64,000 bases of DNA from an uncultured Actinomycetes bacterium (GCA_963705835.1 CAVPLC010000069.1:69449-133448), one strand, 5' to 3'. Counted from the stretch's first letter, positions 2,974 to 59,814 are shown. The notes: generated by a model not told the origin, from the sequence alone. Numbers and translations are program-made.

Positions 2974-3084
2974 GGTCGCCCCCGATCACGGTTTACGCGG
3001 GATAAACGACGCTAGACGAATACGTTGACATCTGTCAAAGTCCAGGTGTCTTCGGGAAGACCTGCCGCGCCGCGCTCCTTCCGT

Positions 3085-3122
3085 CCCTTTTTTGACCGAA
3101 CGTACCGTGGTTCGTCGCCTAC
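3085..3122 (+). repeat. dispersed repeat DR-A, copy 1
   Basis: CCCTTTTTTGACCGAACGTACCGTGGTTCGTCGCCTAC. Near-identical core to the copy at 44467-44507, and the similarity extends about 30 nt upstream. Ends 11 nt before the ATG at 3134. Confidence 0.8.
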
Positions 3123-3133
3123 GCTGCTGAATC

Positions 3134-3949
3134 ATGGACGGGGTTCCCGCCCGCGTCGGTATCGCGGGCGACTGGCACGGAAACACCGCGTGGGCGGTCA
3201 GGGCCGTGGGCAAGATCTCCGCCCTGCTGCCGCGCGACGGTCCGCGGGTCATCCTGCAGCTGGGCGACTTCGGCATCTGGCCCGGCCGCGACGGGCGCGA
3301 GTACCTGTCCAGGCTCGACGCGGCGCTCGCCGCCGCGTCCGCCGACCTGTGCTTCGTCGACGGGAACCACGAGGATTACCCCCAGCTGGCCGGGCTGCGG
3401 CCCGGGCCGGACGGCCGGGAGCGGGTGACCGAGCGGATCTGGCACCTGCCCCGCGGGTACCGGTGGCGCTGGCACGGCCGGGACTGGCTGGCCCTCGGCG
3501 GCGCGGTCAGCCTGGACCGCGCGGTGCGGACGGCGGGCATCGACTGGTGGCCCGAGGAGGAGATCACCCGGCGGCAGGCCGCGTCGGTCATCGACGCCGG
3601 GCCCGCCGACGTGATGGTCACGCACGAGTGCCCGGCCGGCGTCGAGCACGCCTTCCCGCCTGTGCCACCCTCGTGGTCCGCTGCCGACCTGCGCCGCAGC
3701 GACGCGCACCGCGGCCTGCTCCGCGAGGTCGTGCTGGCGGTGCGGCCGCGCTGGCTGATGCACGGCCACCTGCACATGAGCTACCAGCGCCGGGTGGACC
3801 TCGGTAACGGCCCGATCGAGGTGACCGGCCTGGACCGCGACGGCGCGCCGAGCGGCAACTGGGCGATCCTGGATGCCGTGAGCATGCGGTGGCTGCGGTT
3901 CCACGGAAAGCCGATCAGCAACGCCATCCGCGGCCTGGTCTCCTCTTAG
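3134..3949 (+). CDS. calcineurin-like metallophosphoesterase
   Basis: Ordered motifs GDWHGN, GDFG, DGNHEDY, THECP and GHLH. Confidence 0.8.
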   Translation: MDGVPARVGIAGDWHGNTAWAVRAVGKISALLPRDGPRVILQLGDFGIWPGRDGREYLSRLDAALAAASADLCFVDGNHEDYPQLAGLRPGPDGRERVTERIWHLPRGYRWRWHGRDWLALGGAVSLDRAVRTAGIDWWPEEEITRRQAASVIDAGPADVMVTHECPAGVEHAFPPVPPSWSAADLRRSDAHRGLLREVVLAVRPRWLMHGHLHMSYQRRVDLGNGPIEVTGLDRDGAPSGNWAILDAVSMRWLRFHGKPISNAIRGLVSS

Positions 3950-17282: not shown

Positions 17283-18767
17283 TCACGCTCCGAACCGGGG
17301 GACTCCGGTGTCCCCCAGCGGGATGTGGACGATACGCGATTCAGTGTAAAAGTCCAGGCTGTGCGCGCCTCCCTCGCGTCCGAGGCCGCTGGCCTTGACG
17401 CCGCCGAACGGGGTCCGCAGGTCACGCACGTTGTGCGAGTTGATCCAGGTCATCCCGGCCTCGACCGCGTGCGCCACCCGGTGCGCGCGGGCCAGGTCGC
17501 CGGTCCAGATGTAGGCGGCCAGCCCGTAGGGCGTGGCGTTGGCCAGCTCGATCGCCTCGGCCTCGCCGTCGAACGGGGTGACGCAGACCACCGGGCCGAA
17601 GATCTCCTCGCGGAAGATCCGCATCGACGGCTGGACGTCGGCGAACACCGTGGCGGCCAGGTAGTTGCCCTCGGCCAGCCCGGGCGGCCGCGACCCTCCG
17701 GCCACCAGGCGCGCGCCCTCGGCCCGGCCGGTCCGCACGTAGGACAGCACCCGCGCGTAGTGCTCTGGGTGCACCAGCGCGCCGATCTCGGTGGCCGGGT
17801 CCGACGGCTCGCCGACCCGGATGCGCTCGGCCCTGGCGGCCAGCCGGGTGACCAGATCGGGGTATATGGACCGTTCGGCCAAAATCCGGGAGCCGGCCGT
17901 GCACCGTTCGCCGTTGAGGGAGAACACCCCGAACAGGGCGCTGTCGGTCGCCCGGTCCAGGTCGGCGTCGGCGAAGACCAGGCACGGCGACTTGCCGCCC
18001 AGCTCCATGGACAGGCCCTTCAGGTGCGGCGCGGCGGCCGCCATGATGACCTGGCCGGTGGTGGTCTCGCCGGTGAACGAGATGCGGGGCACGCCCGGGT
18101 GCGCGACGAGCGCGGCGCCCGCGACCTCGCCGATGCCGTGCACCAGGTTGAACACGCCGTCGGGCAGGCCGGCCTCGGCCATGATCTCGGGCAGCAGGCT
18201 GGCCGACAGCGGGGTCCACTCGGCGGGCTTGAGCACCACCGTGCAGCCCGACGCCAGCGCGGGCGCGAGCTTCCAGGTCTCCAGCATGAACGGGGTGTTC
18301 CACGGGGAGATCAGGCCCGCCACGCCGGCCGGCTTGCGGATCACGTAGCCGAACTGGGCCGGGGTCCGGAACGCGTCCTCGTGCAGGGTGACGGCCAGGT
18401 CGGCGAAGAACCTGAAGTTCTCCGCGGCCCGCGCCGCCTGGCCGCGGGCCTGGGTGACCGGCAGGCCGGTGTCGAACGTCTCGAGCTCGGCGATCCGCGC
18501 CGCGCGCGCCTCGATGCCGTCGGCGATCCGGTTCAGCACGGCGGCCCGGGCCCGCCCGGCCAGGTGCGGCCAGGGCCCTGCGGCGAACGCGGCCCGGGCG
18601 GCGGCCGCGGCCCGGTCGATGTCCTCGGGGCCGCCGGCCGCGACGGTGGCGTACGGGCGGTTGGTCACCGGATCGGCGACCTCGAACGTGGCGCCGTCCG
18701 AGCTGGAGGTATGGGCACCGCCGATGAAGTGCTCGAGCTTGGCCGGCAGGCCGCGCGGGGTGGTCAC
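17283..18767 (-). CDS. hpaE: NAD-dependent aldehyde dehydrogenase, 5-carboxymethyl-2-hydroxymuconate semialdehyde dehydrogenase type
   Basis: Has FIGG ..., ISPWNTPF, the catalytic-Glu motif MELGGKSP and the catalytic-Cys motif NGERCTAGSR. A candidate GTG start at 18767 gives about 494 aa. The ORF is formally continuous with the upstream FAH-RraA ORF. Confidence 0.8.
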   Translation of the reverse strand: MTTPRGLPAKLEHFIGGAHTSSSDGATFEVADPVTNRPYATVAAGGPEDIDRAAAAARAAFAAGPWPHLAGRARAAVLNRIADGIEARAARIAELETFDTGLPVTQARGQAARAAENFRFFADLAVTLHEDAFRTPAQFGYVIRKPAGVAGLISPWNTPFMLETWKLAPALASGCTVVLKPAEWTPLSASLLPEIMAEAGLPDGVFNLVHGIGEVAGAALVAHPGVPRISFTGETTTGQVIMAAAAPHLKGLSMELGGKSPCLVFADADLDRATDSALFGVFSLNGERCTAGSRILAERSIYPDLVTRLAARAERIRVGEPSDPATEIGALVHPEHYARVLSYVRTGRAEGARLVAGGSRPPGLAEGNYLAATVFADVQPSMRIFREEIFGPVVCVTPFDGEAEAIELANATPYGLAAYIWTGDLARAHRVAHAVEAGMTWINSHNVRDLRTPFGGVKASGLGREGGAHSLDFYTESRIVHIPLGDTGVPRFGA

Positions 18768-21347: not shown

Positions 21348-21983
21348 GTGACCCATCCCGCCGTGAACAAGCAGGAGCGGACCTACGAGATCCTGCGGGA
21401 CCGCATCCATACCGGGGTCTACGCCCCGATGGCCCGGCTGAACATCGACGCGCTGGCCAGGGAGTTCGGCGTCAGCGCGATCCCGGTGCGCGAGGCGCTG
21501 CGCCGCCTGGAGGCCCAAGGCTGGGTCCGGTTCAGGCCCAACGCGGGCGCCATCGTGTCACCGGTCGACGCGACCTCGTGGGAGCAGGCCATGGTGGCCA
21601 TGGCCGTCCTGGAGGGCGCGGCGACCGCCGAGGCGCAGCGGCACCTGCGCGCCGCCGACTTCACCCGGCTGCGGACGCTGGCCGCGGACATGGAGAGCGA
21701 GACCGACCCGATGCGGTTCGGCATGGCGAACCGGCGGCTGCACACCGCGATCGTGACCAAGTGCGGCAACGCCTGCCTGCTTGAACTGCTGCAGCAGACC
21801 CACGACCGCCTGGACCGGGTCCGCGCCACTATGTTCGCCTACCTCCCCCACCGCGCCGCCGAGTCGGTCAAGGAACACCAGCGCCTGCTGGAGTTGCTCG
21901 AGGGCGGCGACGCCGACGAGGTGGAGCGGTACGCCCGCTGGCACAAGCTGCAGACCGTCGAGGCCTACCGGGCCATCCGCTAG
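21348..21983 (+). CDS. GntR-family transcriptional regulator with FCD-type C-terminal domain
   Basis: Winged-helix region LNIDALAREFGVSAIPVREALRRLEAQGWV followed by a helical ligand domain. The GTG start lies 1 nt after the upstream stop. Confidence 0.8.
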   Translation: MTHPAVNKQERTYEILRDRIHTGVYAPMARLNIDALAREFGVSAIPVREALRRLEAQGWVRFRPNAGAIVSPVDATSWEQAMVAMAVLEGAATAEAQRHLRAADFTRLRTLAADMESETDPMRFGMANRRLHTAIVTKCGNACLLELLQQTHDRLDRVRATMFAYLPHRAAESVKEHQRLLELLEGGDADEVERYARWHKLQTVEAYRAIR

Positions 21984-22009
21984 CGGGGCACGGGGTCGGC
22001 CGAGGGGCT

Positions 22010-22038
22010 GTACCACGGACCGTTCGGATAAAAATGTC
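22010..22038 (-). repeat. dispersed repeat DR-A, copy 2
   Basis: Reverse complement GACATTTTTATCCGAACGGTCCGTGGTAC. Lies between the convergent GntR and DinB gene ends. Confidence 0.7.
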
Positions 22039-22595
22039 TCCCGGGACTGGCCGGTCACGATTTCCACGACGATGTCCAGGTGACCCAGGTGCCTGGCGTA
22101 CTCCTGGAGCAGGTGGAACAGGACCCGTTCCAGGGTGGCCGGCGGGGCGCCGTCCCAGCGGGGCCCGGGCTGGCCCGCCTCGGCCAGGTCGTGGGACTCC
22201 ACGATGGCCCGGGTCCGGCCGGCCTGGTCGCGCAGGCCGGCCAGCAGGCTGGCCAGGGTCTCGTCGGGACCGGCACGCCACCGGCCGTCGTCCCTGTCGC
22301 CCCATGGGTCGCCGACGTCGCGGCCCTCGAAACCCCACTCCAGCCAGCGCAGCTCGACGTAGCGCAGGTGCTTGGCCAGCTCGAGCGGCGTCCAGCCGGA
22401 GGGCAGGCGGCTGCGGCGGAGTTCGGCGGCGGGCAGCGCCTCGAGCCTGGCGGCCAGCTCGTACCGGAAGTAGTCCAGGTAGCGCAGGAAGACCTCGGCG
22501 CGCGAAGGGGCCGGGGTGGTCGGCTCGGGAAACGGCTCGGGCCCGGGAAACTCGTCGATGCGGCCTATTATCCCGTGATGGGCACGTCGTGCCAC
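22026..22595 (-). CDS. DinB/DUF664-family (mycothiol-transferase-like) protein
   Basis: Has WTPLELAKHL ... LFHLLQEYARHLGHLDIVVEIVTG. Homology-like sequence ends near 22030, but the ORF has no stop until 21558 and runs antisense through the GntR gene. The end coordinate is an estimate. Confidence 0.6.
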
Positions 22596-26100: not shown

Positions 26101-26199
26101 CCACGGGGCGCCGTTCCGCTCCGATTCCCCGGGAGACCGCTTAGCTGCGGCGGCGGATGTGGTAGGTCGCCTGCTCCTGGTTCTGGGCACAGAGCGTGA

Positions 26200-26220
26200 G
26201 GAACCCGGGTCCGTTCGGGC
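26200..26220 (-). repeat. dispersed repeat DR-A, core-only copy 3b
   Basis: Reverse complement GCCCGAACGGACCCGGGTTCC. Lies 22 nt from copy 3. Confidence 0.6.
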
Positions 26221-26238: not shown

Positions 26239-27126
26239 CTAGCGGGACGAACCCAGATCCGTTCGGTCAAAAAATGAATTTATGGTTTTACTGAATTCGC
26301 CGGGCTGCTCGGCGAAGCAAAGGTGAGACGCATCCTCGATGGTCTTTAGCTGCGACCCGGCGATGCGCTTGTGCATATCCTCCAGGTGGCCCGGGGTGCA
26401 TTCGTCGTAACGGCCGCCGATCAGCAGGGTGGGAACCTTGATCTCGGCCAGGCGGTCCATGATGTCCCAGGTCTTGAGCGTGCCGGTCACGGTGAACTCG
26501 CTCGGGCCGTTCATCGTGTTGTAGACCACGTAGCCGGCCTCGGCGAAGGAGCGCTCGAAGCCGGCCGGCCACGGATTCATGCGGCAGACGTGCTTGCGGT
26601 AGAAGCCGAGGATGGCGGCCTGGTACTCGGGGCAGGCGGTGGTCCCGGCGGCCTCGTGCTCGCGGATCACCTGCCTGGTCTCGGGCGGCTCTTCTTGCAG
26701 CAGCTGCTCGCAGTCGGCGACCCAGCGGATCATGCTGGCCGGGCTGCCGCACAGGGTCAGGCTCTCCAGGTCCGGCTGGCGGTCCAGCACGTACTGCATG
26801 GCCAGCATGCCGCCCCAGGAGCTGCCGAACAGGTGCAGGCGCTCCAGGCCGAACGCCGCCCGCACCTGGGCGACCTCTTCCACGAAGCGCTCCACGGTCC
26901 ACAGGCTGACGTCATCGGGACGGTCGGACTTCCCGCAGCCCAGCTGGTCGTAGAAGATGACCCGGCGCCGGTCGGCCAGCGCTTCAAGCGGTTCCAGGTA
27001 GTTGTGGGTGAAGCCGGGGCCGCCGTGCAGGCACAGCAGCGGCACCCGGCCGTCGGCCGACTCGCCGACGGCGCGGAACCAGACCCGGCCGCCCGGGACC
27101 TCGATGTAGCCCTCTTCCTCGGTCAT
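26239..27126 (-). CDS. proline iminopeptidase-family alpha/beta hydrolase
   Basis: Has LHGGPGFTH, the nucleophile elbow LFGSSWGGMLA, and DASHLCFAEQP. GGGAGA SD lies 6 nt upstream of the ATG. Confidence 0.85.
   Translation of the reverse strand: MTEEEGYIEVPGGRVWFRAVGESADGRVPLLCLHGGPGFTHNYLEPLEALADRRRVIFYDQLGCGKSDRPDDVSLWTVERFVEEVAQVRAAFGLERLHLFGSSWGGMLAMQYVLDRQPDLESLTLCGSPASMIRWVADCEQLLQEEPPETRQVIREHEAAGTTACPEYQAAILGFYRKHVCRMNPWPAGFERSFAEAGYVVYNTMNGPSEFTVTGTLKTWDIMDRLAEIKVPTLLIGGRYDECTPGHLEDMHKRIAGSQLKTIEDASHLCFAEQPGEFSKTINSFFDRTDLGSSR
26242..26277 (-). repeat. dispersed repeat DR-A, copy 3
   Basis: Reverse complement TCATTTTTTGACCGAACGGATCTGGGTTCGTCCCGC. Encodes the last 12 codons of the iminopeptidase ORF (its stop, 26239-26241, follows immediately). 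Confidence 0.75.
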
Positions 27127-28633: not shown

Positions 28634-28720
28634 GACGCTCTCCCTTCGCTCACTACCTAAGGTAATAAAACTGACCATAAAGATCTAGAAGGGACTGACG
28701 TGCCTGAAGTTGCGCGGCGG

Positions 28721-28780
28721 TCCGGGGGTTCGCGGTCGCGGGGGGTTCGCGGTCCCCGCGGGGTTCGCGGTCCGGGGGCC
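28721..28780. repeat. three spaced copies of GGGGTTCGCGGTC (period 17-18 nt)
   Basis: Read directly at 28724, 28741 and 28760. Resembles the right arm and flank of DR-A (GGTCCATGGTTCCCGCGGTCC at 51.4 kb). Confidence 0.7.
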
Positions 28781-28860
28781 GGTTGCTCGGGGAGCTTGAG
28801 AGCCTGAACAGCTGGCCTCACCACTCCCACCGGCCCCTCAGGTACCTGGACGCAGTCAGT

Positions 28861-28904
28861 GAGAGTGACTCTCTGCCCGATAGATCGGGCAGAGAGTCAC
28901 TTTC
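28861..28904. promoter_or_regulatory. 44-nt inverted repeat with a perfect 18-bp core
   Basis: AGTGACTCTCTGCCCGAT-AG-ATCGGGCAGAGAGTCACT at 28864-28901, extendable by three more pairs. Lies in the divergent region between the permease and pspA. Confidence 0.6.
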
Positions 28905-29027
28905 ATTGGTTTGAAATCAAGGGCCTGGCCGCGGCGCTGGGTGGGGTCGGCGGTCGGGGACGGGGCGGGGCGGCTAGATTTGCCGCATAACAGCGGGCCG
29001 TCACCGTTGACTAAGGAGCAGATCGAC

Positions 29028-34543: not shown

Positions 34544-34963
34544 TCAGCCTTCCGGCTGCAGCGCGGCGGGATGGCGCAGCAGGGCGCTGGCCGCGCCGCT
34601 CATGCCGAAGCGGGCGTAGTAGGGGACCAGCGCGGCATCGCAGACCAGGTCCACGGAGTAGAACCGCTCCGTGCCGTCCAGGATCCGGTGCATCAGCGCA
34701 GTGCCGATGCCTCGGCCCTGGTAATCGGGCAGGACCTCCAGCCAGGGGATGAACGCGGTGAGCACGCCGTCGCTGAGCATGGTCACGAACCCGGCTACCC
34801 GCCCGGCCGCATCGTCGATGGCCATCACGCAGCGGTAGCTTCCCCGCAGCACGGCGAGGTGCTGCCGGGTCGAGGGCCGCCGGGGCCAGCCTACGAAGAA
34901 GCCGGTCAGCATGTTCTCGTGGACGAGGCTCACGTCGTCGGTATAGGAGATCATGCGGTCCAT
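34544..34963 (-). CDS. GNAT-family N-acetyltransferase
   Basis: Has the acetyl-CoA-binding motif LPDYQGRGIGTALM, with YYARFGM near the C-terminus. Confidence 0.8.
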   Translation of the reverse strand: MDRMISYTDDVSLVHENMLTGFFVGWPRRPSTRQHLAVLRGSYRCVMAIDDAAGRVAGFVTMLSDGVLTAFIPWLEVLPDYQGRGIGTALMHRILDGTERFYSVDLVCDAALVPYYARFGMSGAASALLRHPAALQPEG

Positions 34964-34997
34964 CCTGGCGGACCGCGATCACGAGTGACGGAGTGGA

Positions 34998-35036
34998 GCA
35001 CCCGGGACCGTTCGGAATAAATGGTTTAAAAGGGAC
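34998..35036 (-). repeat. dispersed repeat DR-A, copy 4
   Basis: Reverse complement ...CCATTTATTCCGAACGGTCCCGGGTGC. Lies between the oxidoreductase stop (35094) and the GNAT start (34963). Confidence 0.7.
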
Positions 35037-35093
35037 ATCCGGGGGCCGGTGTAGCCGGGACCTCAGCAGGTGAAGGTGGACTTTCACCGCACC

Positions 35094-36606
35094 CTAGGAA
35101 GGTGAAAGGCGGGTTTCACCCCGGGGTACGGGGGTGGAGGCGGGGCGGAGGCGCGCCGGGCTGATGTCGGGGGTGTCGCGGATGCCGAAGACGTCGCGGA
35201 GGGCGGACAGGGCGGCGAGTTCGCCGCAGCGGCCGTGGACGCCGGGGAGCGGCGGGGTGGCGGAGGAGCACAGGTAGACGCCGCGGATCGGGGTGCGGTA
35301 CTCGTTCCAGCGGACGACGGGGCGGAACACGGTCTGGCGCATGCTCTGCACGCCGACGGCGATGTCGCCGCCGACGTAGTTGGGGTTGTGGGCCTCCTCG
35401 TCGGCGGCGGTGCGGACGGCCCGGGCCAGGATGAGGTCGCGGAAGCCGGGCGCGAACCGCTCGATCTGCGCCTCGATCCGGTCGGTCATGTCCACGTCGG
35501 ATCCGGCGGGCACGTGGCAGTAGGTCCACAGCGTGTGGCGGCCGGCCGGGGCCCGGGACGGGTCGACGATGCCGGGCTGCATGACCAGCACGTAGGGGTG
35601 CTCGGGGTGCTTGCCCGCCAGGACCTCGGCCCCGGCGGCGGCGGTCTGCTCGTAGGTGCCGCCCAGGTGCAGGCTGACGGCGCGGCGGCAGTCCTCGTTG
35701 GTCCACGGCACCGGGCCGGACAGGGCGAAGTCCACCTTGCAGACGCCCGCACCGTAGCGGTAGCGGCGCAGCGCGGCCCGGTACCGGGACGGCAGGCGGT
35801 CGCCGGCCAGGCGGTCCAGCGTGCGCGGCGAGGTGTCCAGCAGGACGGCGCCGGCGGGAGGCAGTTCGCTGAGCGAGGTCACCCAGCTGGCCGGTCTCGA
35901 AGCCGCCGCCCGCGGCGATCACCGCGTCGGCCATCGCGTCGGAGATCCGGGCGGTGCCGCCCACCACGACCGGCCAGCCCACCGAGTGGGCCAGGCCGAC
36001 GAGCATGAGCCCGATGCCCGCGGTCGGCACGGCGGTCAGCGGCATCATGGCGTGGGCGGCGGCGCCGGCCAGGATCGCGCGGGCCTGCGGGGTGTGCCAG
36101 CGCCGGACCACCACCGAGGCGGGCAGCACGGCGCGCATGCCGTAGCTGGCCAGCACGAACGGGTGCGCGGGCGGGCGGCGCAGCGGCGCGAGCAGGGCCG
36201 CGATGATGTCGTCGGCGTGCGCGGCCACCGGGCCTATCGTCCGCTGGTAGGCCCGGCGGTCCTGGCCGAGGCGGGCGGCGGTCTCGGCCACCGAGCGGGT
36301 CACGACGGCGGCCCGGCCGCCGTCCAGGGGGTTGGCGAACTCGATCTCGGAGTGGGCGAAGGCCACGCCGCGCGCGGCCAGGTCGAAGCGCCGGAAGAAC
36401 GGCGAGGCCAGGGCCAGCGGGTGGCCCGAGGAGCAGACGTCGTGCCGGAAGCCGGGCAGGGTCAGCTCCTCGGTCCGGCAGCCGCCGCCGATGGTCGGCG
36501 CGCCGTCGATGACCAGGACCTTCAGCCCGGCCGCGGACAGGGTGACGGCAGCGGCCAGGCCGTTCGGGCCGCTGCCGACGATCACCGCGTCAGGATTCCC
36601 CCGCAT
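35094..36606 (-). CDS. FAD/NAD(P)-dependent oxidoreductase, phytoene-desaturase (CrtI-like) family
   Basis: Dinucleotide-binding motif DAVIVGSGPNGLAAA. C-terminal GVYLCSSATPPLPGVHG. The two halves are in different frames and join at about 35878-35888 (GGGFETGQL / VTSLSELPP). Length is 1 mod 3. The ATG at 36606 is preceded by GAGGGG. Confidence 0.75.
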
Positions 36607-36645: not shown

Positions 36646-37521
36646 CACTACGTTCTTATCACGGCCCTGCTTATCACGGCCCTGCTTGTCACGGCCCTGC
36701 TTGTCACGGCCCTGCTTGTCACGGCGCAGCATCCGGGCCAGGCCGGTGACCGGGGCCGCGATGGTCTGGAGCACGCTGCGCACCGCGGAGTTGTGCCAGA
36801 TGTTGCTGGCGTGACGCCACTGGCGTTTGGAGTCGACGCAGGTGCTGGTGGTCTCGACCGCCGGGTCCTGGACGCCGAGGCGGTTGCCGAGCGCGACCAG
36901 GGTGGCGGTCCAGAACCTGTCTTCCTTCTTGTGCCCGCCGAACGTCATCCCGAGCTCGTAGATCGGGTCGTTCGCCCGCATCAGCACCTGAGCCTGGACG
37001 ATGGTGTCATCGCCTTCGCGTTCGGCGGAGAAGGTGATCCAGCCGGCGAACATGTGTCCCTGCGGGGTCATCAGCGTGAACGACTCGGCGTCCGCGTACA
37101 GGACGAAGACGCCGGTGGACAGCTTCACGCCGCCGCCGATGGCCAGGTCGAGCAGGGCGACGTCGCCGGGGTTGATGCCGGTGAGCGCGCCGGCGAACCG
37201 GTTGCCCTTCGGCCAGAACTCCGGGAAGTGCGCCTTCCAGGTGGCGATCGCGTACTCGGGTTCGACCTGGGCCTTCATGCGGTAGCTCTTCTGCCACATC
37301 TTGCCGAAGCCCTGGACCGGGCCGGTGAGCCGCCGGCCTGCGACGTTGGTCCCGCGGACCCCCTGCCGCGGGTCAACTTCCAGCCGCTCCACCTTCTTGG
37401 CCCAGCTCGCCGCGTCACGCGGTGCCGTGGTGTGCGGCACGGGCGGCGCCGCCGCCTCGCGGGCGCTCAGGCCGATCTGCTCGGCCGAGGCGACCCGCTC
37501 CGGGCCTGCTGTATCGGTCAT
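36634..37521 (-). CDS. DUF1990-like protein with C-terminal (DKQGR)n repeat
   Basis: 295-aa ORF. The central region ...FTLMTPQGHMFAGWITFSAEREGDDTIVQAQVLMRAN resembles DUF1990, but this family call is tentative. Confidence 0.55.
   Translation of the reverse strand: MTDTAGPERVASAEQIGLSAREAAAPPVPHTTAPRDAASWAKKVERLEVDPRQGVRGTNVAGRRLTGPVQGFGKMWQKSYRMKAQVEPEYAIATWKAHFPEFWPKGNRFAGALTGINPGDVALLDLAIGGGVKLSTGVFVLYADAESFTLMTPQGHMFAGWITFSAEREGDDTIVQAQVLMRANDPIYELGMTFGGHKKEDRFWTATLVALGNRLGVQDPAVETTSTCVDSKRQWRHASNIWHNSAVRSVLQTIAAPVTGLARMLRRDKQGRDKQGRDKQGRDKQGRDKNVVASG
36655..36729. repeat. 5 x 15-bp tandem repeat CTT(A/G)TCACGGCCCTG
   Basis: Counted directly. Encodes RDKQG RDKQG RDKQG RDKQG RDK at the C-terminus of the 36634-37521 gene. 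Confidence 0.9.
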
Positions 37522-44399: not shown

Positions 44400-44466
44400 G
44401 CGCGTCACGTTACCCGCCGAGCGTTCCGGCATCGTTACGGGCCAAGGCTGACCCGCCGCCCCGCTT

Positions 44467-44507
44467 CCCTTCTTATTTTGGGCCGAACGGACCGTGGTTC
44501 CCGCCTA
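44467..44507 (+). repeat. dispersed repeat DR-A, copy 5
   Basis: CCCTTCTTATTTTGGGCCGAACGGACCGTGGTTCCCGCCTAC. Overlaps the stop codon (44504-44506) of the sigma-fusion gene. Confidence 0.8.
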
Positions 44508-46049
44508 CAGCGAGACGTTCAGCACGACCGTGACGGTGGCGCCGCCGGGGCTGATGGTGAGCTGCTTGTCCAGCGTGATCAGGCTGGTCGAGTGCACCGT
44601 GATCGTCACGCTCGCGCCGGACGCGAGCGATCCCGACGCGGGCGAGACGGTCAGGCCGGACGGGACCGATATCGAGTAGCCGCTCGACCGGGCCGCCCTT
44701 GGCGGTGAGCGTGAACGTCCCGACGCCCTGACCGTTGACCGCCACCAGGACCAGCCTGGTCTGCAACACGGTCAGCGTGCCCTGGGTCACCGGCGACGGG
44801 GAAGACGCCGAGGACCTGGGCGACGAGGATCCGGTCCCGGAGCCCGCAGCGCCGGTCGTTCCGGCCGCGCCCGACGTCCCGGGCTTTCCCGGCGTTCCGG
44901 AGCCGGCGGCCAGTCCCGGCGCGGTCGCGCCGCCGGACCCGCCGCTTGAGGGCGGCAGCCCGCTGCTGCCGCCGCCGCCCGGCGCGGTGCCGTTTCCCTG
45001 CCGTGGGAAGGGCCTCCGCGCGCTCCGGCCACCGCGCCAGGTGCCGGGCTGCCGCGGGCCCCGGCCGCCGGGTTCTGGCCGTGCTGCGCGCCGCCGATGA
45101 ACAGGACCGCGCCGACCCCCGCCGCGGCCACGGCCGTAGCCGTGCTGGCCACCGCGGCGTGGGAGTGCCGCAGGGCGTGAGGCCAGCCGGACGCGCCGGG
45201 CAGGCTCAGCGGCCTGGGGAAGCCCGCGGGGCCGAACGTCCCCGCCCGCGTCGCGACGTTCGCGCGGCGCGCCAGCCCGACGGCCGTGTGATCGGTGCAC
45301 AGCCCCAGCACCTGCTCACGGAACCCGGGCACCAGCGCGACCATCGGCACCGCGCCGGCGAACAGGGCCGGGCTCAGCTCGCGGCGCTTGCGCTCACCGC
45401 AGATCTCGCACCGTTCTATGTGGCGGCTGACCCGCTTGCGGATGAGCACCGTCAGCTGCCCGTCCCAGCCGGCCAGGGCAGCGTCGAGCGCGGAGCAGGC
45501 GTCCCGCCCGGCACGCGCGACGAGCAGCACGCCCAGCGATCGTTCCAGCTGACCGCGGGCCCGGGACAGCAGCGCGTGAGCGTGGTTGCGCGACACCCCC
45601 AGCGCGTCGGCCAGTTCCTCCCCCTGGAGGCCGTGCGCCAGGCTCAGCTCGATGACGTCACGCTCGGCGGGGTTCAGCCCGCCGAGCGCGTCGCGGACGA
45701 GATCACGCAGTTCGGCCTGTTCGGCGGCGCTGCCGACGTCGGCCGATTCGGCTGGCATGTTCACCGCCTCGTCGAGTGCGGATGTGGTCAGGCCGGAACG
45801 CAGCTGGCGCAGGCACTCGTTACGCGCGACCGCGTAGAGCCAGGACCGCAGCTTGGCCGGGTCCTTGAGCCCGCCCAGCTTGGCGGTGGCGATCAGGAAC
45901 GTATCCTGCACGGCGTCGGCGGCGTCCGCGGGCTCGCGCAGCAGGGAACGGCAGTAGGCGTACAGCGGCATGGCGTACCTGTCGTACGCCTCGGCGATGC
46001 CGCGAGGGTCCCCCGCCACGATGGCGGCGACCACCTCACCGTCGTCCAT
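44504..46049 (-). CDS. ECF-type sigma-70 factor fused to a zinc-finger anti-sigma-like segment, a TM helix and a Gly/Ser-rich beta-rich extracytoplasmic tail
   Basis: Sigma region 2 DAVQDTFL and region 4 ELADALGVSRNHAHALLSRAR. Then HIERCEIC and the TM segment AVAAAGVGAVLFIGGA. The tail ...TLTVLQTRLVLVAVNGQGVGTFTLTAKGG / GYSISVPSGLTVSP ... TVVLNVSL needs two more frame changes, at about 45000-45040 and 44680-44700. Confidence 0.65.
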
Positions 46050-51233: not shown

Positions 51234-51420
51234 GGCAACCCTCACTTTCTGTGCGGTTGGCTGCCAGCCGGACTCTATGCCTTTAGTCGCGGTCAATGTA
51301 ATGATTGCGCGCGAACCGTTATCGATCCGGAAAGCGAAAAGCGCGCGAATTAGCGAATGTCCAGACTAAACTAGGAAAGTCGGCGTAATCGGATATGCGA
51401 GCTATGCGCGAGTGCGGACC

Positions 51421-51455
51421 GCGGGAACCATGGACCGTTCGGAATAAAATGTTTT
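51421..51455 (-). repeat. dispersed repeat DR-A, copy 6
   Basis: Reverse complement AAAACATTTTATTCCGAACGGTCCATGGTTCCCGC. Begins 10 nt after the stop at 51466. Confidence 0.8.
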
Positions 51456-51465
51456 GATCTTGGGG

Positions 51466-53605
51466 TCAGGGCTGGGTCTGCAGCAGGCCGAGCGGGCTGG
51501 GCGCGGCGAACTGGACGGTCAGCAGGGCGGGGCCGGACAGGCCCGCGTGGGCCGGGAGGAAGGGCGGGCGCTGCGCGCGGACGAAGGCCAGGATGTTCCG
51601 GGCTTGCGCGCCGGCGGCGGCGAGCTCGGCCGACCGGAGCGGCGGGGTCAGCGCGGAGCCGGGCGTGCCGGGACCGCCGTCGGCGAAGCCCGCGATATGG
51701 ACCGGCTGATTCGCGGCCAGGGCGGCCAGCGTGATCAGCAGCCGCGCGTCGACCTGGCCGGACGCGAGCTCGGCGCGGGCCGACGGGGTGACTGTCACCC
51801 GCGGGTCGGCGAGGAGCTGGCGCCCGGCGGTCTGCCTGGCGCTGCGGTCGGCGGCGAGCGCGGCCCGGAAGGCTCCGGCCTGCGCCACCACGCGCACGTC
51901 GATCCTGGCCGGGCCGGTGCCGAAGCTGGCCAGCGTCTCGGGCGCGTACACGCTGGCCAGACGGCTGCCGAACATCGCGCGCACCGCGGCCGTGGCCACC
52001 ACGACGGCCGAGCCGAGCGGGTCGGACGCACCGGGACCGAGCACGAGAAGGTTAGCGGCCGGGACGCCGCTGCGGACCAGAGCGGAGCACATCGCGGGGT
52101 CGCAGGACACGATGGCGGCGCTGTTGACCTGGCTGGCCACCCAGGCCGCGGCCTGGTCGCGGACGGCGGCCGCCAGGCTGAGCGGGGCGGGCGCGGCCGG
52201 GCGGGAGGTCCGGTCGGATGACGTCAGGTGCGGCGCCGAGAAGCCGTTCGTGGCCTCGACGGCGAGCACGGCGCCGATCACCCCGGCCGAGCAGACCAGC
52301 CCGATCCGGCGCAGGCGGGGCCAGTCAACACGGGGCCAGTCGACGCGGGTGTGTTCCGGGCTCGCCTCGTGGCGTTGCGGGGTGGTGGGTACGGCGGGAT
52401 CGGCGGCTAGTTCGGTGGCGCGGCGCAGGTGATAGCCGAGTTCGAGCTGGGCGCGCTGGGCGTTGGCCGACTCGGTGCGGGCTCGCCAGTATCCGGCGGC
52501 ATCGCGGTGGGCCGCGGCGACCTCGGCGTTGCGCCCGGCCTCATCGAGGCGGCGGTGCAGTTCGGCGGCGGTCCAGCGGTGGACCGATCGCTCGTGACCG
52601 GGGCCGTCGGTGAGCAGGCCCACGGCCTCGCACTCGGCGATGTGCGCCGGGCGAGCGGCCAGCACGTCAGGCTGCGACCGGGACGCGGAACACCGACGCT
52701 CGGACGAGCATCGCCTGCGCACCGGCGCTGAGCCGGTCGAACAGCTCGCCGAGCATCTGGTCGCCCGCCGCGAGCGCGATCGACTCGGCGGTCGCCGCGG
52801 GCAGCTCGGTGGGTTCCGTCTGGGTCGCGGCCTGGCCGGTCCGGGCCTGCACGGCCGCGGTTATCCGGCCAGTCACGTCGTCGAGACGCAGGCCGGCCGC
52901 CAGCAGGGAGTCCAGGTACTCCATGGCGCGCGGGTGCCCGGCGGTCAGCCGCCACGCGAGGTCCCGTTCGGCTTCGGCAAGCATGCGGAGCGCGGGCAGG
53001 GACAGGGCTAGTTCGGCGGCACCCGAGCGGGTCAGCGGGCCGAGATGACGGAACGCCAGGCGTTCCTTGCGCAGCCCGGGCACTGAGAACGGGCGAACGC
53101 AGCTGATCAGCAGCTTGCCGGTCCAGCCGGCCAGCAGCGCGGCCAGCTGAGGGTCGCGGACGGTCCACAGGCCCGTCTCGTCCGAGAGGTTGTCGTCGAA
53201 GTCGTCAAGGACGACCAGATCGGTCTCGGCCGGCTCGGCGACCAGGCTGGCGGCGGATACCTCGCCGGTGAGCACGGTGATGACGCGTTCCGGCGTCAGG
53301 CGGCTCACGCGAGAGACGATCTGGGCGACCAGCGTCGACTTGCCGATTCCGCCGACGCCGTGCACGACCAGCGCGGTCACGTTCGGTCCGGTCAGATCGG
53401 CGGACCAGCGCCGCCGCTCCGCGGACCGGATGGACAGGGAGGTGCGCTGGAGCACGGCGCCGGACGTCCGGGCGTGGCGCGCGGAATGCCGCGCACGGGC
53501 CGGTTTCTCCTCCGGGCCGGCTCGCCTGGCCGACGGCACGTCGTGCGGCAGGACACCGCGCGTCAATTCCGCGTTATCGTGCCGAATACGGACTAACTTC
53601 GCCAC
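51466..53605 (-). CDS. NB-ARC/STAND-type P-loop ATPase fused to a TM segment and an extracytoplasmic domain
   Basis: P-loop HGVGGIGKSTL and Walker B LVVLDDFD. Helical region and TM segment IGLVCSAGVIGAVLAV, then a roughly 260-aa C-terminal domain. ORFs 52667..53605 and 51466..52722 join at about 52670-52680. Length is 1 mod 3. Confidence 0.7.
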
Positions 53606-58302: not shown

Positions 58303-58490
58303 GCGGCGTCGCACGGCTCGGAACCGGTCTCGGCGGCGGTGCCCGCAGCAGTAGCGGCAGCGGTACGCACGGAGCGGCCGGTGGCGGGAACGGGACCGGG
58401 GTGCTGAGCTACGGCCCGGCGCTGGGCGGGCCGGGTCCCGGTACGGCCGTCGGCGGGACCGGTCCTGGCGCGGCGGTCGGCGGGACCCCG

Positions 58491-58555
58491 AGCGGCGGGA
58501 CGGCGAGCGGCGGGACGGGGAGCGGCGGGACGGGGAGCGGCGGGACGGGGAGCGG
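58491..58555. repeat. 4 x 15-bp tandem repeat AGCGGCGGGACGGGG
   Basis: Counted directly. Part of a roughly 900-nt G-rich low-complexity stretch (58303-59250). Confidence 0.85.
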
Positions 58556-58623: not shown

Positions 58624-59814
58624 ATGACGGCTGACATTCCGGGCGCGGCAGGGCCGGGCATGGCGCACGCGAGCGGGCATGGCGGCGGAGGGCACGGCGC
58701 TGGGCGACGCAACGCCGGCGAGGCGACACGCGGCGGGCAGGACGGTGCGGCCTCGGGCCGGGCGGCAACAGGTCAGGCGACACGCGGCGGGCAGGGCACC
58801 GCGGCCTCGGGCGGGGCGCGGCTGAGCGCGGCCGGGGCGGGCGGGGTGCCGCGGACGTCGGAGGTTTCGGGCGCTCCGGGCTCATCGGGCCGCAGTTCCT
58901 CGGGTCGGAGCGTATCGGGCCGGAGCGTATCGGGCCGGAGCGCTCGGGCCGGAGCGCGTCGGGCCGGACCGCGTCTGGGCCGGAGCTCGTCGAGCCCGGT
59001 CAGCTCGCGGGCTCGTACCACAGGCGCGGGCGCGGCCGTACCGACGGCGGGGCCGACGGCGGGGCCGACGGTGGGATGGCCGGGCGGCAGCGGCGCTGGC
59101 TCGGCCGGCCAGGACTCCTCGGGCCGGGGCTCCGCAGGGCTGGGCGGTACTCGGATTCCCGGCGTGACGGTCAGCAATGCGGGCGCGGGTACCCGGGCCG
59201 CCAGCGGGGCGGCGCTGCGGGCCGGGCCGCGCAACGTCAGGATCAGCACCCGGCGGTACGTGGCGCAGATTCCGCAGGCGGTGACCGCGGCGTTCATCAC
59301 GTCGGCCAAGACGCCGCTGCTGCGGTCCGAGCCGCTGTACCGGGATGTCGCGCGGAACACGGGAGTGCGCTGGCAGCTGCTGGCCGCCTGCGACTGGATG
59401 CAGTGCCAGGCCCAGCCGCGGGTCTCGCCGGTCTACGGCGAGAAGCTCGGCACCAAGAACAGCGACGGTACGGTCTACCGCACCAAGTCATCGGCGCTCG
59501 AGCAGTGCGCGCGCGACCTGATCGACCTGGCCCGGATGGTGTACGGCATCGACCTGACCGAGCGGCTCTACCTGTCGATCCGCGATCTGGCCAACGTGTT
59601 CGCCGCCTTCCGCTGGGGCGGGCTGCTGGCCGCGCACCATATCTCGTCGATGGAGTTCCCGTACTCCGTCGAAGGGCTGACCGCACATCACCTCAAGATG
59701 CGCTGGCCCGACATTCCCGATACGCCCAAGGCCGACAAGGCGGGCGCGCGGTTCCCGATGGCTTTCGGGGCGGTACCAATCGTCCTCGGCCTGGATTATC
59801 CGGCGGTGGTTTAG
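58624..59814 (+). CDS. protein with Gly/Ser/Arg-rich low-complexity N-terminal half and a conserved-looking C-terminal domain
   Basis: The C-terminal 190 aa are of normal composition (RWQLLAACDWMQCQA ... FRWGGLLAAHHISSMEFPYSVEGL). Start and frame within the low-complexity part are uncertain. An ORF in another frame (to 58634) overlaps the ATG. Confidence 0.45.
   Translation: MTADIPGAAGPGMAHASGHGGGGHGAGRRNAGEATRGGQDGAASGRAATGQATRGGQGTAASGGARLSAAGAGGVPRTSEVSGAPGSSGRSSSGRSVSGRSVSGRSARAGARRAGPRLGRSSSSPVSSRARTTGAGAAVPTAGPTAGPTVGWPGGSGAGSAGQDSSGRGSAGLGGTRIPGVTVSNAGAGTRAASGAALRAGPRNVRISTRRYVAQIPQAVTAAFITSAKTPLLRSEPLYRDVARNTGVRWQLLAACDWMQCQAQPRVSPVYGEKLGTKNSDGTVYRTKSSALEQCARDLIDLARMVYGIDLTERLYLSIRDLANVFAAFRWGGLLAAHHISSMEFPYSVEGLTAHHLKMRWPDIPDTPKADKAGARFPMAFGAVPIVLGLDYPAVV

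Follow-up and report, generated by a model that had tools for sequence, protein, structure and literature searches.

A dispersed, non-palindromic extragenic repeat family in Trebonia-like soil actinobacteria

Dispersed extragenic repeats are well studied in Proteobacteria, where REPs evolve in concert and act as protein landing sites for gyrase, IHF and Pol I. As far as our literature search reached, none of this type has been described for Actinomycetota. Here we report a family of short repeats in a 64,000-nucleotide stretch of DNA (the whole of which is referred to below as the window) whose host belongs to a Trebonia-like Streptosporangiales lineage of soil bacteria. In common with the REP/BIME/REPIN elements of Proteobacteria, the copies are about 30 bp long, extragenic, high in number and found in both orientations, often right after stop codons, and they occur as single units, tandems or inverted doublets. 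Like those elements, they make up a lineage-specific family that keeps equivalent intergenic positions and bears signs of concerted evolution.

We show that the family is intergenic, independent of orientation, conserved at the level of DNA, devoid of RNA structure and restricted to one lineage. Each site is best read as REP-like in its distribution but non-palindromic.

Seven copies in an ordinary chromosomal region

The repeat family is real. All seven copies listed in a first-pass annotation of the window were recovered in place (Table 1), and components of the motif are in excess of chance: the octamer CCGAACGG occurs 17 times where 4.85 occurrences are expected, a count reached in none of 100 shuffles; CGAAC-N8-GTTC gives eight strand matches at six sites (0.35 expected); and the 18-mer CCGAACGGNCCNTGGTTC gives 13 matches at up to three mismatches (1.24 expected). 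With up to two mismatches allowed, the 18-mer matches the seven copies, at six loci, and nothing else, where the chance expectation is about zero. A weight matrix built from about 54 family members found six of the seven in the window at its threshold of 14 bits, with scores of 30 to 44, and no match at all in the reversed-sequence control of the window; the seventh, at 26218, has the core, lacks the T arm and is not among the matrix matches.

All seven copies are intergenic or lie over the last codons of a gene, and no copy with two or fewer core mismatches was found in the coding interiors of the window's roughly 57 kb of coding DNA. Enrichment and intergenic bias, the want of which was to count against the first-pass annotation, are both strong. 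A look-alike on the minus strand at 17878, consisting of a T run and the octamer only, was rejected as a chance match because the aldehyde dehydrogenase coding sequence around it is conserved in L001.

Table 1. Copies of the repeat in the window. The core start is the first C of CCGAACGG, given with the motif strand; all seven cores have at most two mismatches to CCGAACGGNCCNTGGTTC.
Copy	Span	Strand	Core start	Core	T arm	Score (bits)	Gene context
A	3085..3122	+	3096+	3096-3113, CCGAACGTACCGTGGTTC	3088-3095	37.1	Divergent spacer, GDSL lipase (2128-2973, -) / metallophosphoesterase (3134-3949, +); core starts 38 nt before metallophosphoesterase ATG; TACGCT -10-like box at 3120-3125
B	22005..22040	-	22027-	22010-22027	22028-22037	35.7	Overlaps 3' end of DinB/DUF664-family gene, whose stop is lost via a 6-nt deletion; 27 nt from stop of convergent GntR gene (21348-21983, +)
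C	26239..26290	-	26266-	26249-26266	26267-26290, long, T/A-rich	30.6	Wholly within last 17 codons of proline iminopeptidase (26239-27126, -); overlaps TAG stop 26239-26241; 7 of 9 codons preceding core end in A or T
D	26197..26220	-	26218-	CCGAACGGACCCGGGTTC, core only	absent		Tandem, 48 bp downstream of copy C; 21 nt past iminopeptidase stop; no counterpart at orthologous site in L205
E	34995..35040	-	35015-	34998-35015, 2 mismatches	35016-35040	32.2	Between two co-directional minus-strand genes, sense; ~55 nt past stop at 35094; 52 nt before ATG of GNAT acetyltransferase (34544-34963)
F	44467..44508	+	44483+	44483-44500, perfect match	44472-44482	41.5	CTA of CCTAC, 44505-44507, is stop codon of minus-strand gene; antisense to both flanking co-directional genes; next minus-strand ORF starts at 44432 or 44399; upstream neighbour is ECF sigma gene
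G	51420..51458	-	51442-	51425-51442, perfect match	51443-51455	43.6	~10-25 nt past TGA stop (51466-51468) of upstream minus-strand gene, sense; at least 130 nt before RDD-family gene

Gene contexts in the window were checked by hand. The six loci comprise one divergent spacer, one convergent spacer and four co-directional spacers, three of the latter with the copy in sense and one in antisense. These contexts bear out the first-pass annotation both in that copies hug or overlap stop codons, five of the six loci lying within about 60 nt of one, and in that they occur in either orientation. The TACGCT box that follows copy A is placed where it would suit a leaderless transcript.

The surrounding region is about 71% GC, carries genes on both strands and has ordinary chromosomal content, metabolic and regulatory. 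It encodes a GDSL lipase, a metallophosphoesterase (MPE), a subtilase, an acyl-CoA ligase and a fused FAA-hydrolase/RraA/aldehyde dehydrogenase; a GntR regulator, a DinB/DUF664 protein, a proline iminopeptidase (PIP), an amino-acid permease, PspA and a Ser/Thr kinase; and a GNAT protein, STAS/SpoIIE partner-switching proteins, SARP-type and LuxR-type regulators, an ECF sigma factor, an RDD protein and an amidohydrolase. No tRNA was found in the window, and Pfam scans of about 40 of its roughly 55 genes revealed no transposase. By their Pfam contexts, the genes adjoining the copies are functionally unrelated.

Motif anatomy and host lineage

In an alignment of 45 to 56 non-redundant copies, conservation spans only about -10 to +24 around the core, and nothing beyond these limits is common to the family. 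The consensus consists of the T arm, CCGAACG, two free positions, CCGTGGTTC and a weak CCCGC, the last following directly on GGTTC. The motif thus measures about 28 to 35 bp, with a T tract of 5 to 10 nt, often in the form (C/T)ATTTT and then 3 to 4 nt, preceding CCGAACG; the smallest repeating unit, seen in the tandem array of L088, is 27 bp. Information is concentrated in two near-invariant blocks around the free positions 8 and 9, GAAC and GTTC being the most conserved. The T-rich arm is indeed unusual for a genome of about 71% GC, as had been remarked from the window alone. Two further candidate features were rejected: a micro-ORF (MPNGPWF) opened by an ATG directly before the core in at least six copies, downstream of which nothing is conserved and frames vary, and a shared 3' extension, GGTGCTCCACNCGTCAC, which copy E and L137 have in common and which is limited to these two cases.

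The first-pass annotation had described a dyad too short for a stable terminator hairpin, and the second part of that description stands in full: fold z-scores on both strands run from -0.65 to +0.70, about zero and no better than shuffled sequence. The dyad itself survives as sequence and fails as pairing. Its positions pair in 74.2% of cells (shuffles, 74.1%), a single compensatory change is seen among 225 cells, and covariation does not exceed that of shuffled columns; a fifth pair is formed in only 5 of 45 copies, which leaves 4 bp conserved. Rfam 15 gave no match in the window at gathering thresholds, and at E up to 5 only two weak mir-4679 matches elsewhere in the window, none of them at motif sites. 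Because neither folding nor covariation exceeds that of shuffled sequence, we read the motif as sequence (DNA, possibly unstructured single strands) and not as a hairpin.

The closest proteins to those of the window come from soil and peat metagenomes, in MAGs labelled Streptosporangiaceae or "uncultured Actinomycetes". A scan of a genome collection holding one genome per species returned at least 120 matches. Among those listed, the bare 17-mer is found in many phyla, as the reverse strand of a conserved metallophosphoesterase peptide (..LNHGSFGA..), and copies with the T arm are found only in Trebonia sp., a Streptosporangiaceae MAG, a palsa Actinomycetota MAG and about 15 "uncultured Actinomycetes" MAGs, several of the listed loci coming from one MAG. 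Viral contigs gave isolated single coding matches only; with the mixed-strand, ordinary chromosomal nature of the region, this led us to reject a phage origin or stoperator-like sites. Close relatives carry about one copy per 10 kb, a density from which hundreds of copies per genome are predicted.

Position and arrangement in related genomes

The description of the copies as lying mostly at gene 3' ends fits the stops of the window and is too narrow for its relatives, in which promoter spacers (MPE, ohr/leuS) and an operon spacer hold the motif with equal conservation. For the MPE gene, 80 metagenomic loci were reduced to 53 distinct upstream regions, 24 of which have the motif at 14 bits or more and five others a degenerate form. 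In all of them the distance from the start of the core to the start codon is 33-39 nt (37-39 in ATG forms, 33 in GTG-start variants), and the regions farther upstream cannot be aligned. In some MPE orthologues the left half of the motif, or the whole of it, is gone and both the TACGCT box and the start codon remain, which shows that the motif is not the MPE core promoter. Two diverged groups of ohr genes have a copy 42 or 61 nt upstream, which is the only common part of their upstream regions, and further promoter-side copies precede leuS (often head to head with the ohr copy), an NRDE-family gene and others. From core to start codon the distance is 38 nt for MPE, 42 or 61 for ohr, 52 for GNAT, 61 for the NRDE-family gene and 52 for an aldo-keto reductase, and overall it ranges from 38 to 227 nt.

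At the 3' end of the DinB gene a copy is present in six genomes (window, L202, L203, L204, L206 and L207), directly 3' of the stop codon in L202, L203, L206 and L207. The stop has been removed by an additional T in L204 and by the 6-nt deletion in the window, and the open frame then reads through the motif; this stop loss and read-through put junk tails (..GEL-FSAERAV..) on many DinB proteins in the databases. What lies downstream varies from genome to genome (an FAA hydrolase, GntR or Nramp), so it is with the DinB 3' end that the motif travels.

The 3' end of the PIP gene tells a similar tale in four genomes (window, L205, L206 and L207), where the copy keeps the same nucleotide position to within one base. 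Changes of 1 nt in the length of the T run shift the frame, giving C-terminal tails FFDRTDRGS.., FLAERSGPSH or FMT and a stop, the last being a TAA created by a G-to-T change inside CCGAACGG. In genomes with a GC3 of about 0.9, the codons under the T arm are AGT AAA ACC ATA AAT TCA TTT TTT in the window and AAT TCT TTT in L206 and L207. Because the frames vary and AT-ending synonymous codons lie under the T arm, selection or biased conversion acts on the DNA and not on the protein. The more distant L208 has a related coding sequence, TTCCTCGACCGCATCGAGG, at the equivalent site, which suggests that the motif arose in place by point mutation and not by insertion. In addition, an antisense copy is conserved in the 60-nt spacer of the livH-livM operon (L084/L170), abutting the TGA stop, and a few copies in relatives sit in open frames with AT-ending codons.

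Orientation shows no clear preference. Among about 33 non-redundant loci, about 17 copies point at a co-oriented gene and about 11 into a convergent gene (about 28 being classifiable), and by gene context about 7 copies past stops are in sense and about 6 in antisense; such context counts in relatives are approximate, because the GC3-based gene caller is imperfect, calling shadow ORFs and missing the read-through DinB gene. Close inverted pairs have a clear polarity, with six to seven head to head (L041, L045, L089, L137, L180 and L196, also L018) and none tail to tail; their common centre of 14-22 bp is AT-rich and in many cases includes AAAGATCTTT. Tandem units occur in the window (26266/26218), in L088 (three identical copies with a 27-bp period) and in L096. 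Singles, tandems and head-to-head pairs are the only arrangements seen, singles far outnumber pairs, and all copies in the window are single or tandem. Identical non-consensus variants appear twice within one genome in L047 (25 of 25 bases) and in L207, where both orthologous copies share AACGGGCCGGGCGCGTGCCCC; the other genomes compared have no such shared variants. Inspection of the flanks of single copies and of pairs found no target-site duplications.

Candidate functions and comparison with known systems

We tentatively favour the view that this lineage-specific extragenic motif is a double-stranded DNA docking site for a putative sequence-specific DNA-binding protein, since this covers all of the facts above. 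Protein binding, its mode and any role in chromosome organisation or gene regulation are inferred from the sequences. Most likely a helix-turn-helix dimer would contact the GAAC and GTTC half-sites, whose centres lie about 12 bp apart, and on one side of it the adjacent T tract would offer a minor groove that is narrow and bendable. Two units placed head to head around a common AT-rich centre can form a palindrome of about 50 bp. On this reading the copies are inherited vertically, and selection holds them at fixed spots in intergenic space of any type (promoter spacers, gene 3' ends and operon spacers). New ones seem to come from point mutation, from local tandem or inverted duplication and now and then from conversion of one copy by another; transposition of a larger element does not seem to be their source. 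Those lying 30-60 nt before start codons could also modulate transcription there.

Several observations sit less easily with a docking site. The density of about one copy per 10 kb, the L088 array and the identical variants of L047 and L207 also fit a self-propagating element, and the subset at a fixed distance before start codons also fits an ordinary operator. The motif taken whole lacks symmetry, and its GAAC/GTTC dyad is short.

It is unlikely, in our judgement, that the copies are operators of one global dimeric transcription factor binding GAAC-N8-GTTC, those at 3' ends being non-functional or weakly functional by-products. The dyad has the geometry typical of helix-turn-helix dimers, the distances to the start codon are fixed or short for MPE, ohr, GNAT, NRDE and aldo-keto reductase genes, the motif is the sole common upstream part of the two ohr groups, and divergent promoter spacers such as ohr/leuS hold head-to-head pairs. 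However, about 40% of copies have no promoter to control (the convergent DinB end, the antisense copies at 44483 and L203:7022, and livH-livM), and the density implies hundreds of sites. The neighbouring genes have no common function, and MPE orthologues without the motif keep their -10 box and start; the family thus shows neither the functionally related genes nor the confinement to promoters that mark the operators of a regulon. Among known actinobacterial operators, those of DasR, ArpA/ScbR ARE, GlnR, PhoP, KstR, AdpA, DosR/OsdR and WhiB7 AT-hook promoters do not fit. GAACG-N15-CCTAC, the ECF-like pattern of the Microbispora sigma factor MibX, fits a few copies and not the family as a whole.

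A selfish replicator of REPIN or mini-MITE type, moved by a putative transposase (RAYT/IS200-like or other), is distinctly unlikely. Its mobile unit would be the head-to-head pair, with 17-bp inverted arms, the AT-rich centre of 14-22 bp and a total of about 50-56 bp, and single copies would be decayed halves. Such an origin would account for an extragenic, high-copy family in both orientations with tandem and inverted clusters, for inverted pairs that are exclusively head to head, for the identical non-consensus variants within L047 and L207, and for a copy D that has no counterpart in L205. Two copies in the window also end in CCTAC, the reverse complement of GTAGG, which is found at the foot of E. 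coli REPs; this pentamer lies 3' only of copies A and F and of the MPE orthologues, the family consensus after GGTTC being CCCGC. Against mobility stand the predominance of singles over pairs, the want of a stable hairpin or covariation in single units, the absence of visible target-site duplications and of a transposase among the genes scanned, and the in-place origin suggested by TTCCTCGACCGCATCGAGG in L208. Orthologues with 70-80% protein identity moreover keep the positions, and purifying selection acts on the motif and even at synonymous sites. The combination that defines MITEs (80-500 bp, terminal inverted repeats and target-site duplications) was not found. An integron attC site or gene-cassette boundary was rejected as well, the copies being 4-9 kb apart, on both strands and not folded palindromes.

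That the T arm is itself a compact promoter is very unlikely. On that account (C/T)ATTTT would serve as the -10 element and the G or A of CCGAAC as the first transcribed base; the core would be a common 5' leader, and antisense RNAs would arise at gene ends. AT-rich tracts are rare and potentially promoter-active at about 71% GC, many members of the family (44483, 51442, 22027, 26266, L045, L047, L083 and L084) have a (C/T/G)ATTTT whose end is 4-5 nt short of the core, and roughly one copy in two is directed towards a start codon close by. But TANNNT is inconsistent on either strand and absent in copy A (TTTTTTGA) and in the copies of L202, L203 and L207; about 11 of the 28 classifiable copies point into convergent genes, one is antisense within an operon spacer, and antisense RNA from the DinB copy would run into neighbours of three different and unrelated kinds. 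Start codons lie anywhere from 38 to 227 nt away, which is likewise hard to square with a promoter. Nor did examination of all copies by hand for Sigma-70, ECF or MerR-type geometry find a common -10, either downstream or in the T arm, or any orientation bias; in copy A, TTGACC and TACGCT are 22 nt apart.

A signal for DNA uptake or other self-recognition, kept by biased uptake or recombination and not by local function, is highly improbable. The asymmetric architecture of a core with an AT-rich flank, the independence of orientation, the restriction to one lineage, the location at gene ends, the inverted pairs and the conservation even against codon preference would all suit it, but the density is about ten times below that of DUS and USS, and no copy with two or fewer core mismatches lies in the coding interiors of the window's roughly 57 kb of coding DNA, though the GC-rich core is easily encoded. 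DUS and USS are common inside genes, and we know of no uptake specificity in Actinomycetota.

A transcription terminator or other RNA-level 3'-end element, such as an mRNA stabiliser, deserves scarcely any credence despite the closeness of five of the six window loci to stop codons and the conserved, sense copies right at the DinB and PIP stops, for the T run lies 5' of the dyad and not 3', the GC-rich hairpin followed by a U tract that makes an intrinsic terminator was not found, folding on either strand is no better than shuffled and without covariation, sense and antisense copies past stops are about equal (about 7 against 6), and copies also occupy divergent promoter spacers and the livH-livM spacer.

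Returning to a docking site, it is possible, at modest probability, that the motif is the genome-wide recognition site of a putative lineage-specific protein-DNA system in Treboniaceae-like soil actinobacteria, either for a chromosome-organising or boundary protein or as a self-DNA tag for uptake or recombination. If so, selection on the sites would be strong enough to override codon usage and to let them persist at orthologous positions, and they would constitute a non-palindromic counterpart of REPs in a phylum in which, to our knowledge, none has been described. The host lineage is abundant in soil and almost unstudied, and a binding protein, if found, could turn out to be a global regulator or nucleoid-organising factor of a new kind; the 30-mer can be used as bait, and a cultured relative, Trebonia kvetii, exists. 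The motif also explains the mis-annotated read-through C-terminal tails of DinB-family and iminopeptidase-family proteins of this lineage in the databases, and serves as a sequence marker for the lineage in metagenomes.

The first-pass annotation had recognised no known operator, REP or MITE in the repeat, and our searches agree: no Rfam family matches it, searches of the literature for the motif, for REP/RAYT in Actinobacteria and for the formula of the dyad brought up nothing relevant, and literature matches to CCGAACGG are OsdR-type sites of other shape or PCR primers. The half-sites (C)GAAC and GTTC(G) recall the LexA (Cheo/SOS) box, GAAC-N4-GTTC, and one copy adjoins a DinB-family gene; the spacer is, however, 8 nt and not 4 in all copies, and the T arm is one-sided. 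The predicted number of sites, in the hundreds, and the location of many at gene 3' ends further speak against an SOS regulon. MIRU are likewise actinobacterial intergenic repeats that can overlap flanking stop and start codons, including within operons, but they form tandem arrays of 46-101 bp, are oriented with transcription and contain small coupling ORFs, whereas the present family has a 30-bp unit, mostly single and in either orientation.

The Neisseria DUS and Pasteurellaceae (Haemophilus) USS resemble it in having an asymmetric core with an AT-rich flank, in their independence of orientation and of neighbouring gene function, in their inverted pairs at gene ends and in their restriction to one lineage; they differ from it in being about ten times denser, and the present motif is absent from coding interiors in the window. 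With REPs the family shares a short, dispersed and extragenic nature as well as tandem and inverted clusters, but not the stable stem-loop palindrome: the single unit is not palindromic and its 4-bp dyad does not covary, there is no family-wide GTAG foot, and no RAYT gene was found among the roughly 40 window genes scanned. In further contrast to the REP/BIME/REPIN elements, the copies are strongly conserved in divergent promoter spacers too, and they belong to the phylum Actinomycetota. The most apt description of the family is a dispersed extragenic repeat of a new, non-palindromic type.

Local amplification of the motif and a coding look-alike

In a related MAG (locus L088), a trpD-like gene is preceded by three identical motif units in perfect tandem, an arrangement that indicates recent local amplification. 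The short tandem repeats of the window itself (Table) have periods of 12-18 nt, 4-7 copies and 82-98% identity; some, such as that at 28717-28778, are intergenic, and others probably belong to coding repeats.

The 17-mer CCGAACGNNCCGTGGTT was found in many phyla (genome-scan loci L082-L201, among the matches listed). In these phyla a metallophosphoesterase-like gene encodes a conserved peptide (..CP/GxAPxGSFGHNL.., read as LNHGSFGA), and the 17-mer is the reverse strand of that coding sequence. Such matches are coding look-alikes of the motif, to be filtered from any motif scan.

Features in the window and in a related MAG
Feature	Position	Strand	Description
Palindrome	3026-3039 (flanks about 2995-3045)		TTGACATCTGTCAA; TAGCGT box downstream, minus strand
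DinB/DUF664 read-through ORF	21558-22595	minus	
Tandem repeat	28717-28778		
Inverted repeat, 25 nt	28857-28908		arms CAGTGAGAGTGACTCTCTGCCCGAT / ATCGGGCAGAGAGTCACTTTCATTG, 92% complementary, 2-nt gap
Tandem repeat	36655-36725		
Tandem repeat	39993-40054		
Gene ending at motif copy F	44505-44790	minus	stop codon is the CTA of copy F; apparent frameshift around 44700
Tandem repeat	58478-58555		
Tandem repeat	58885-58996		
Motif array	L088, 3526-3596		three identical 27-bp units, CTATTCGCCGAACGATCCGTGGTTCCT, perfect tandem

A lost stop codon and an apparent frameshift

Relative to loci L202 and L203, a 6-nt deletion in the window has removed the stop codon of the DinB/DUF664 gene, and the ORF extends about 160 codons further, crossing the GntR gene that converges on it. 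The arginine-rich junk tails of many orthologues in the databases have the same cause.

Immediately upstream of the gene ending at copy F is an ECF sigma gene (44787-46049) whose product has a long C-terminal extension. Both frames around its apparent frameshift give beta-rich, secreted-domain-like translations, and the frameshift may represent an assembly error or a pseudogene.

Conserved and inverted elements in divergent spacers

Nearly all orthologous lipase/metallophosphoesterase spacers retain both the palindrome and the TAGCGT box; together these probably form the promoter of the GDSL lipase and an operator that overlaps it. The inverted repeat lies where the amino-acid permease and PspA genes diverge, and it matches mir-4679 in Rfam weakly and below threshold. 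It is probably an operator or hairpin belonging to the psp region.
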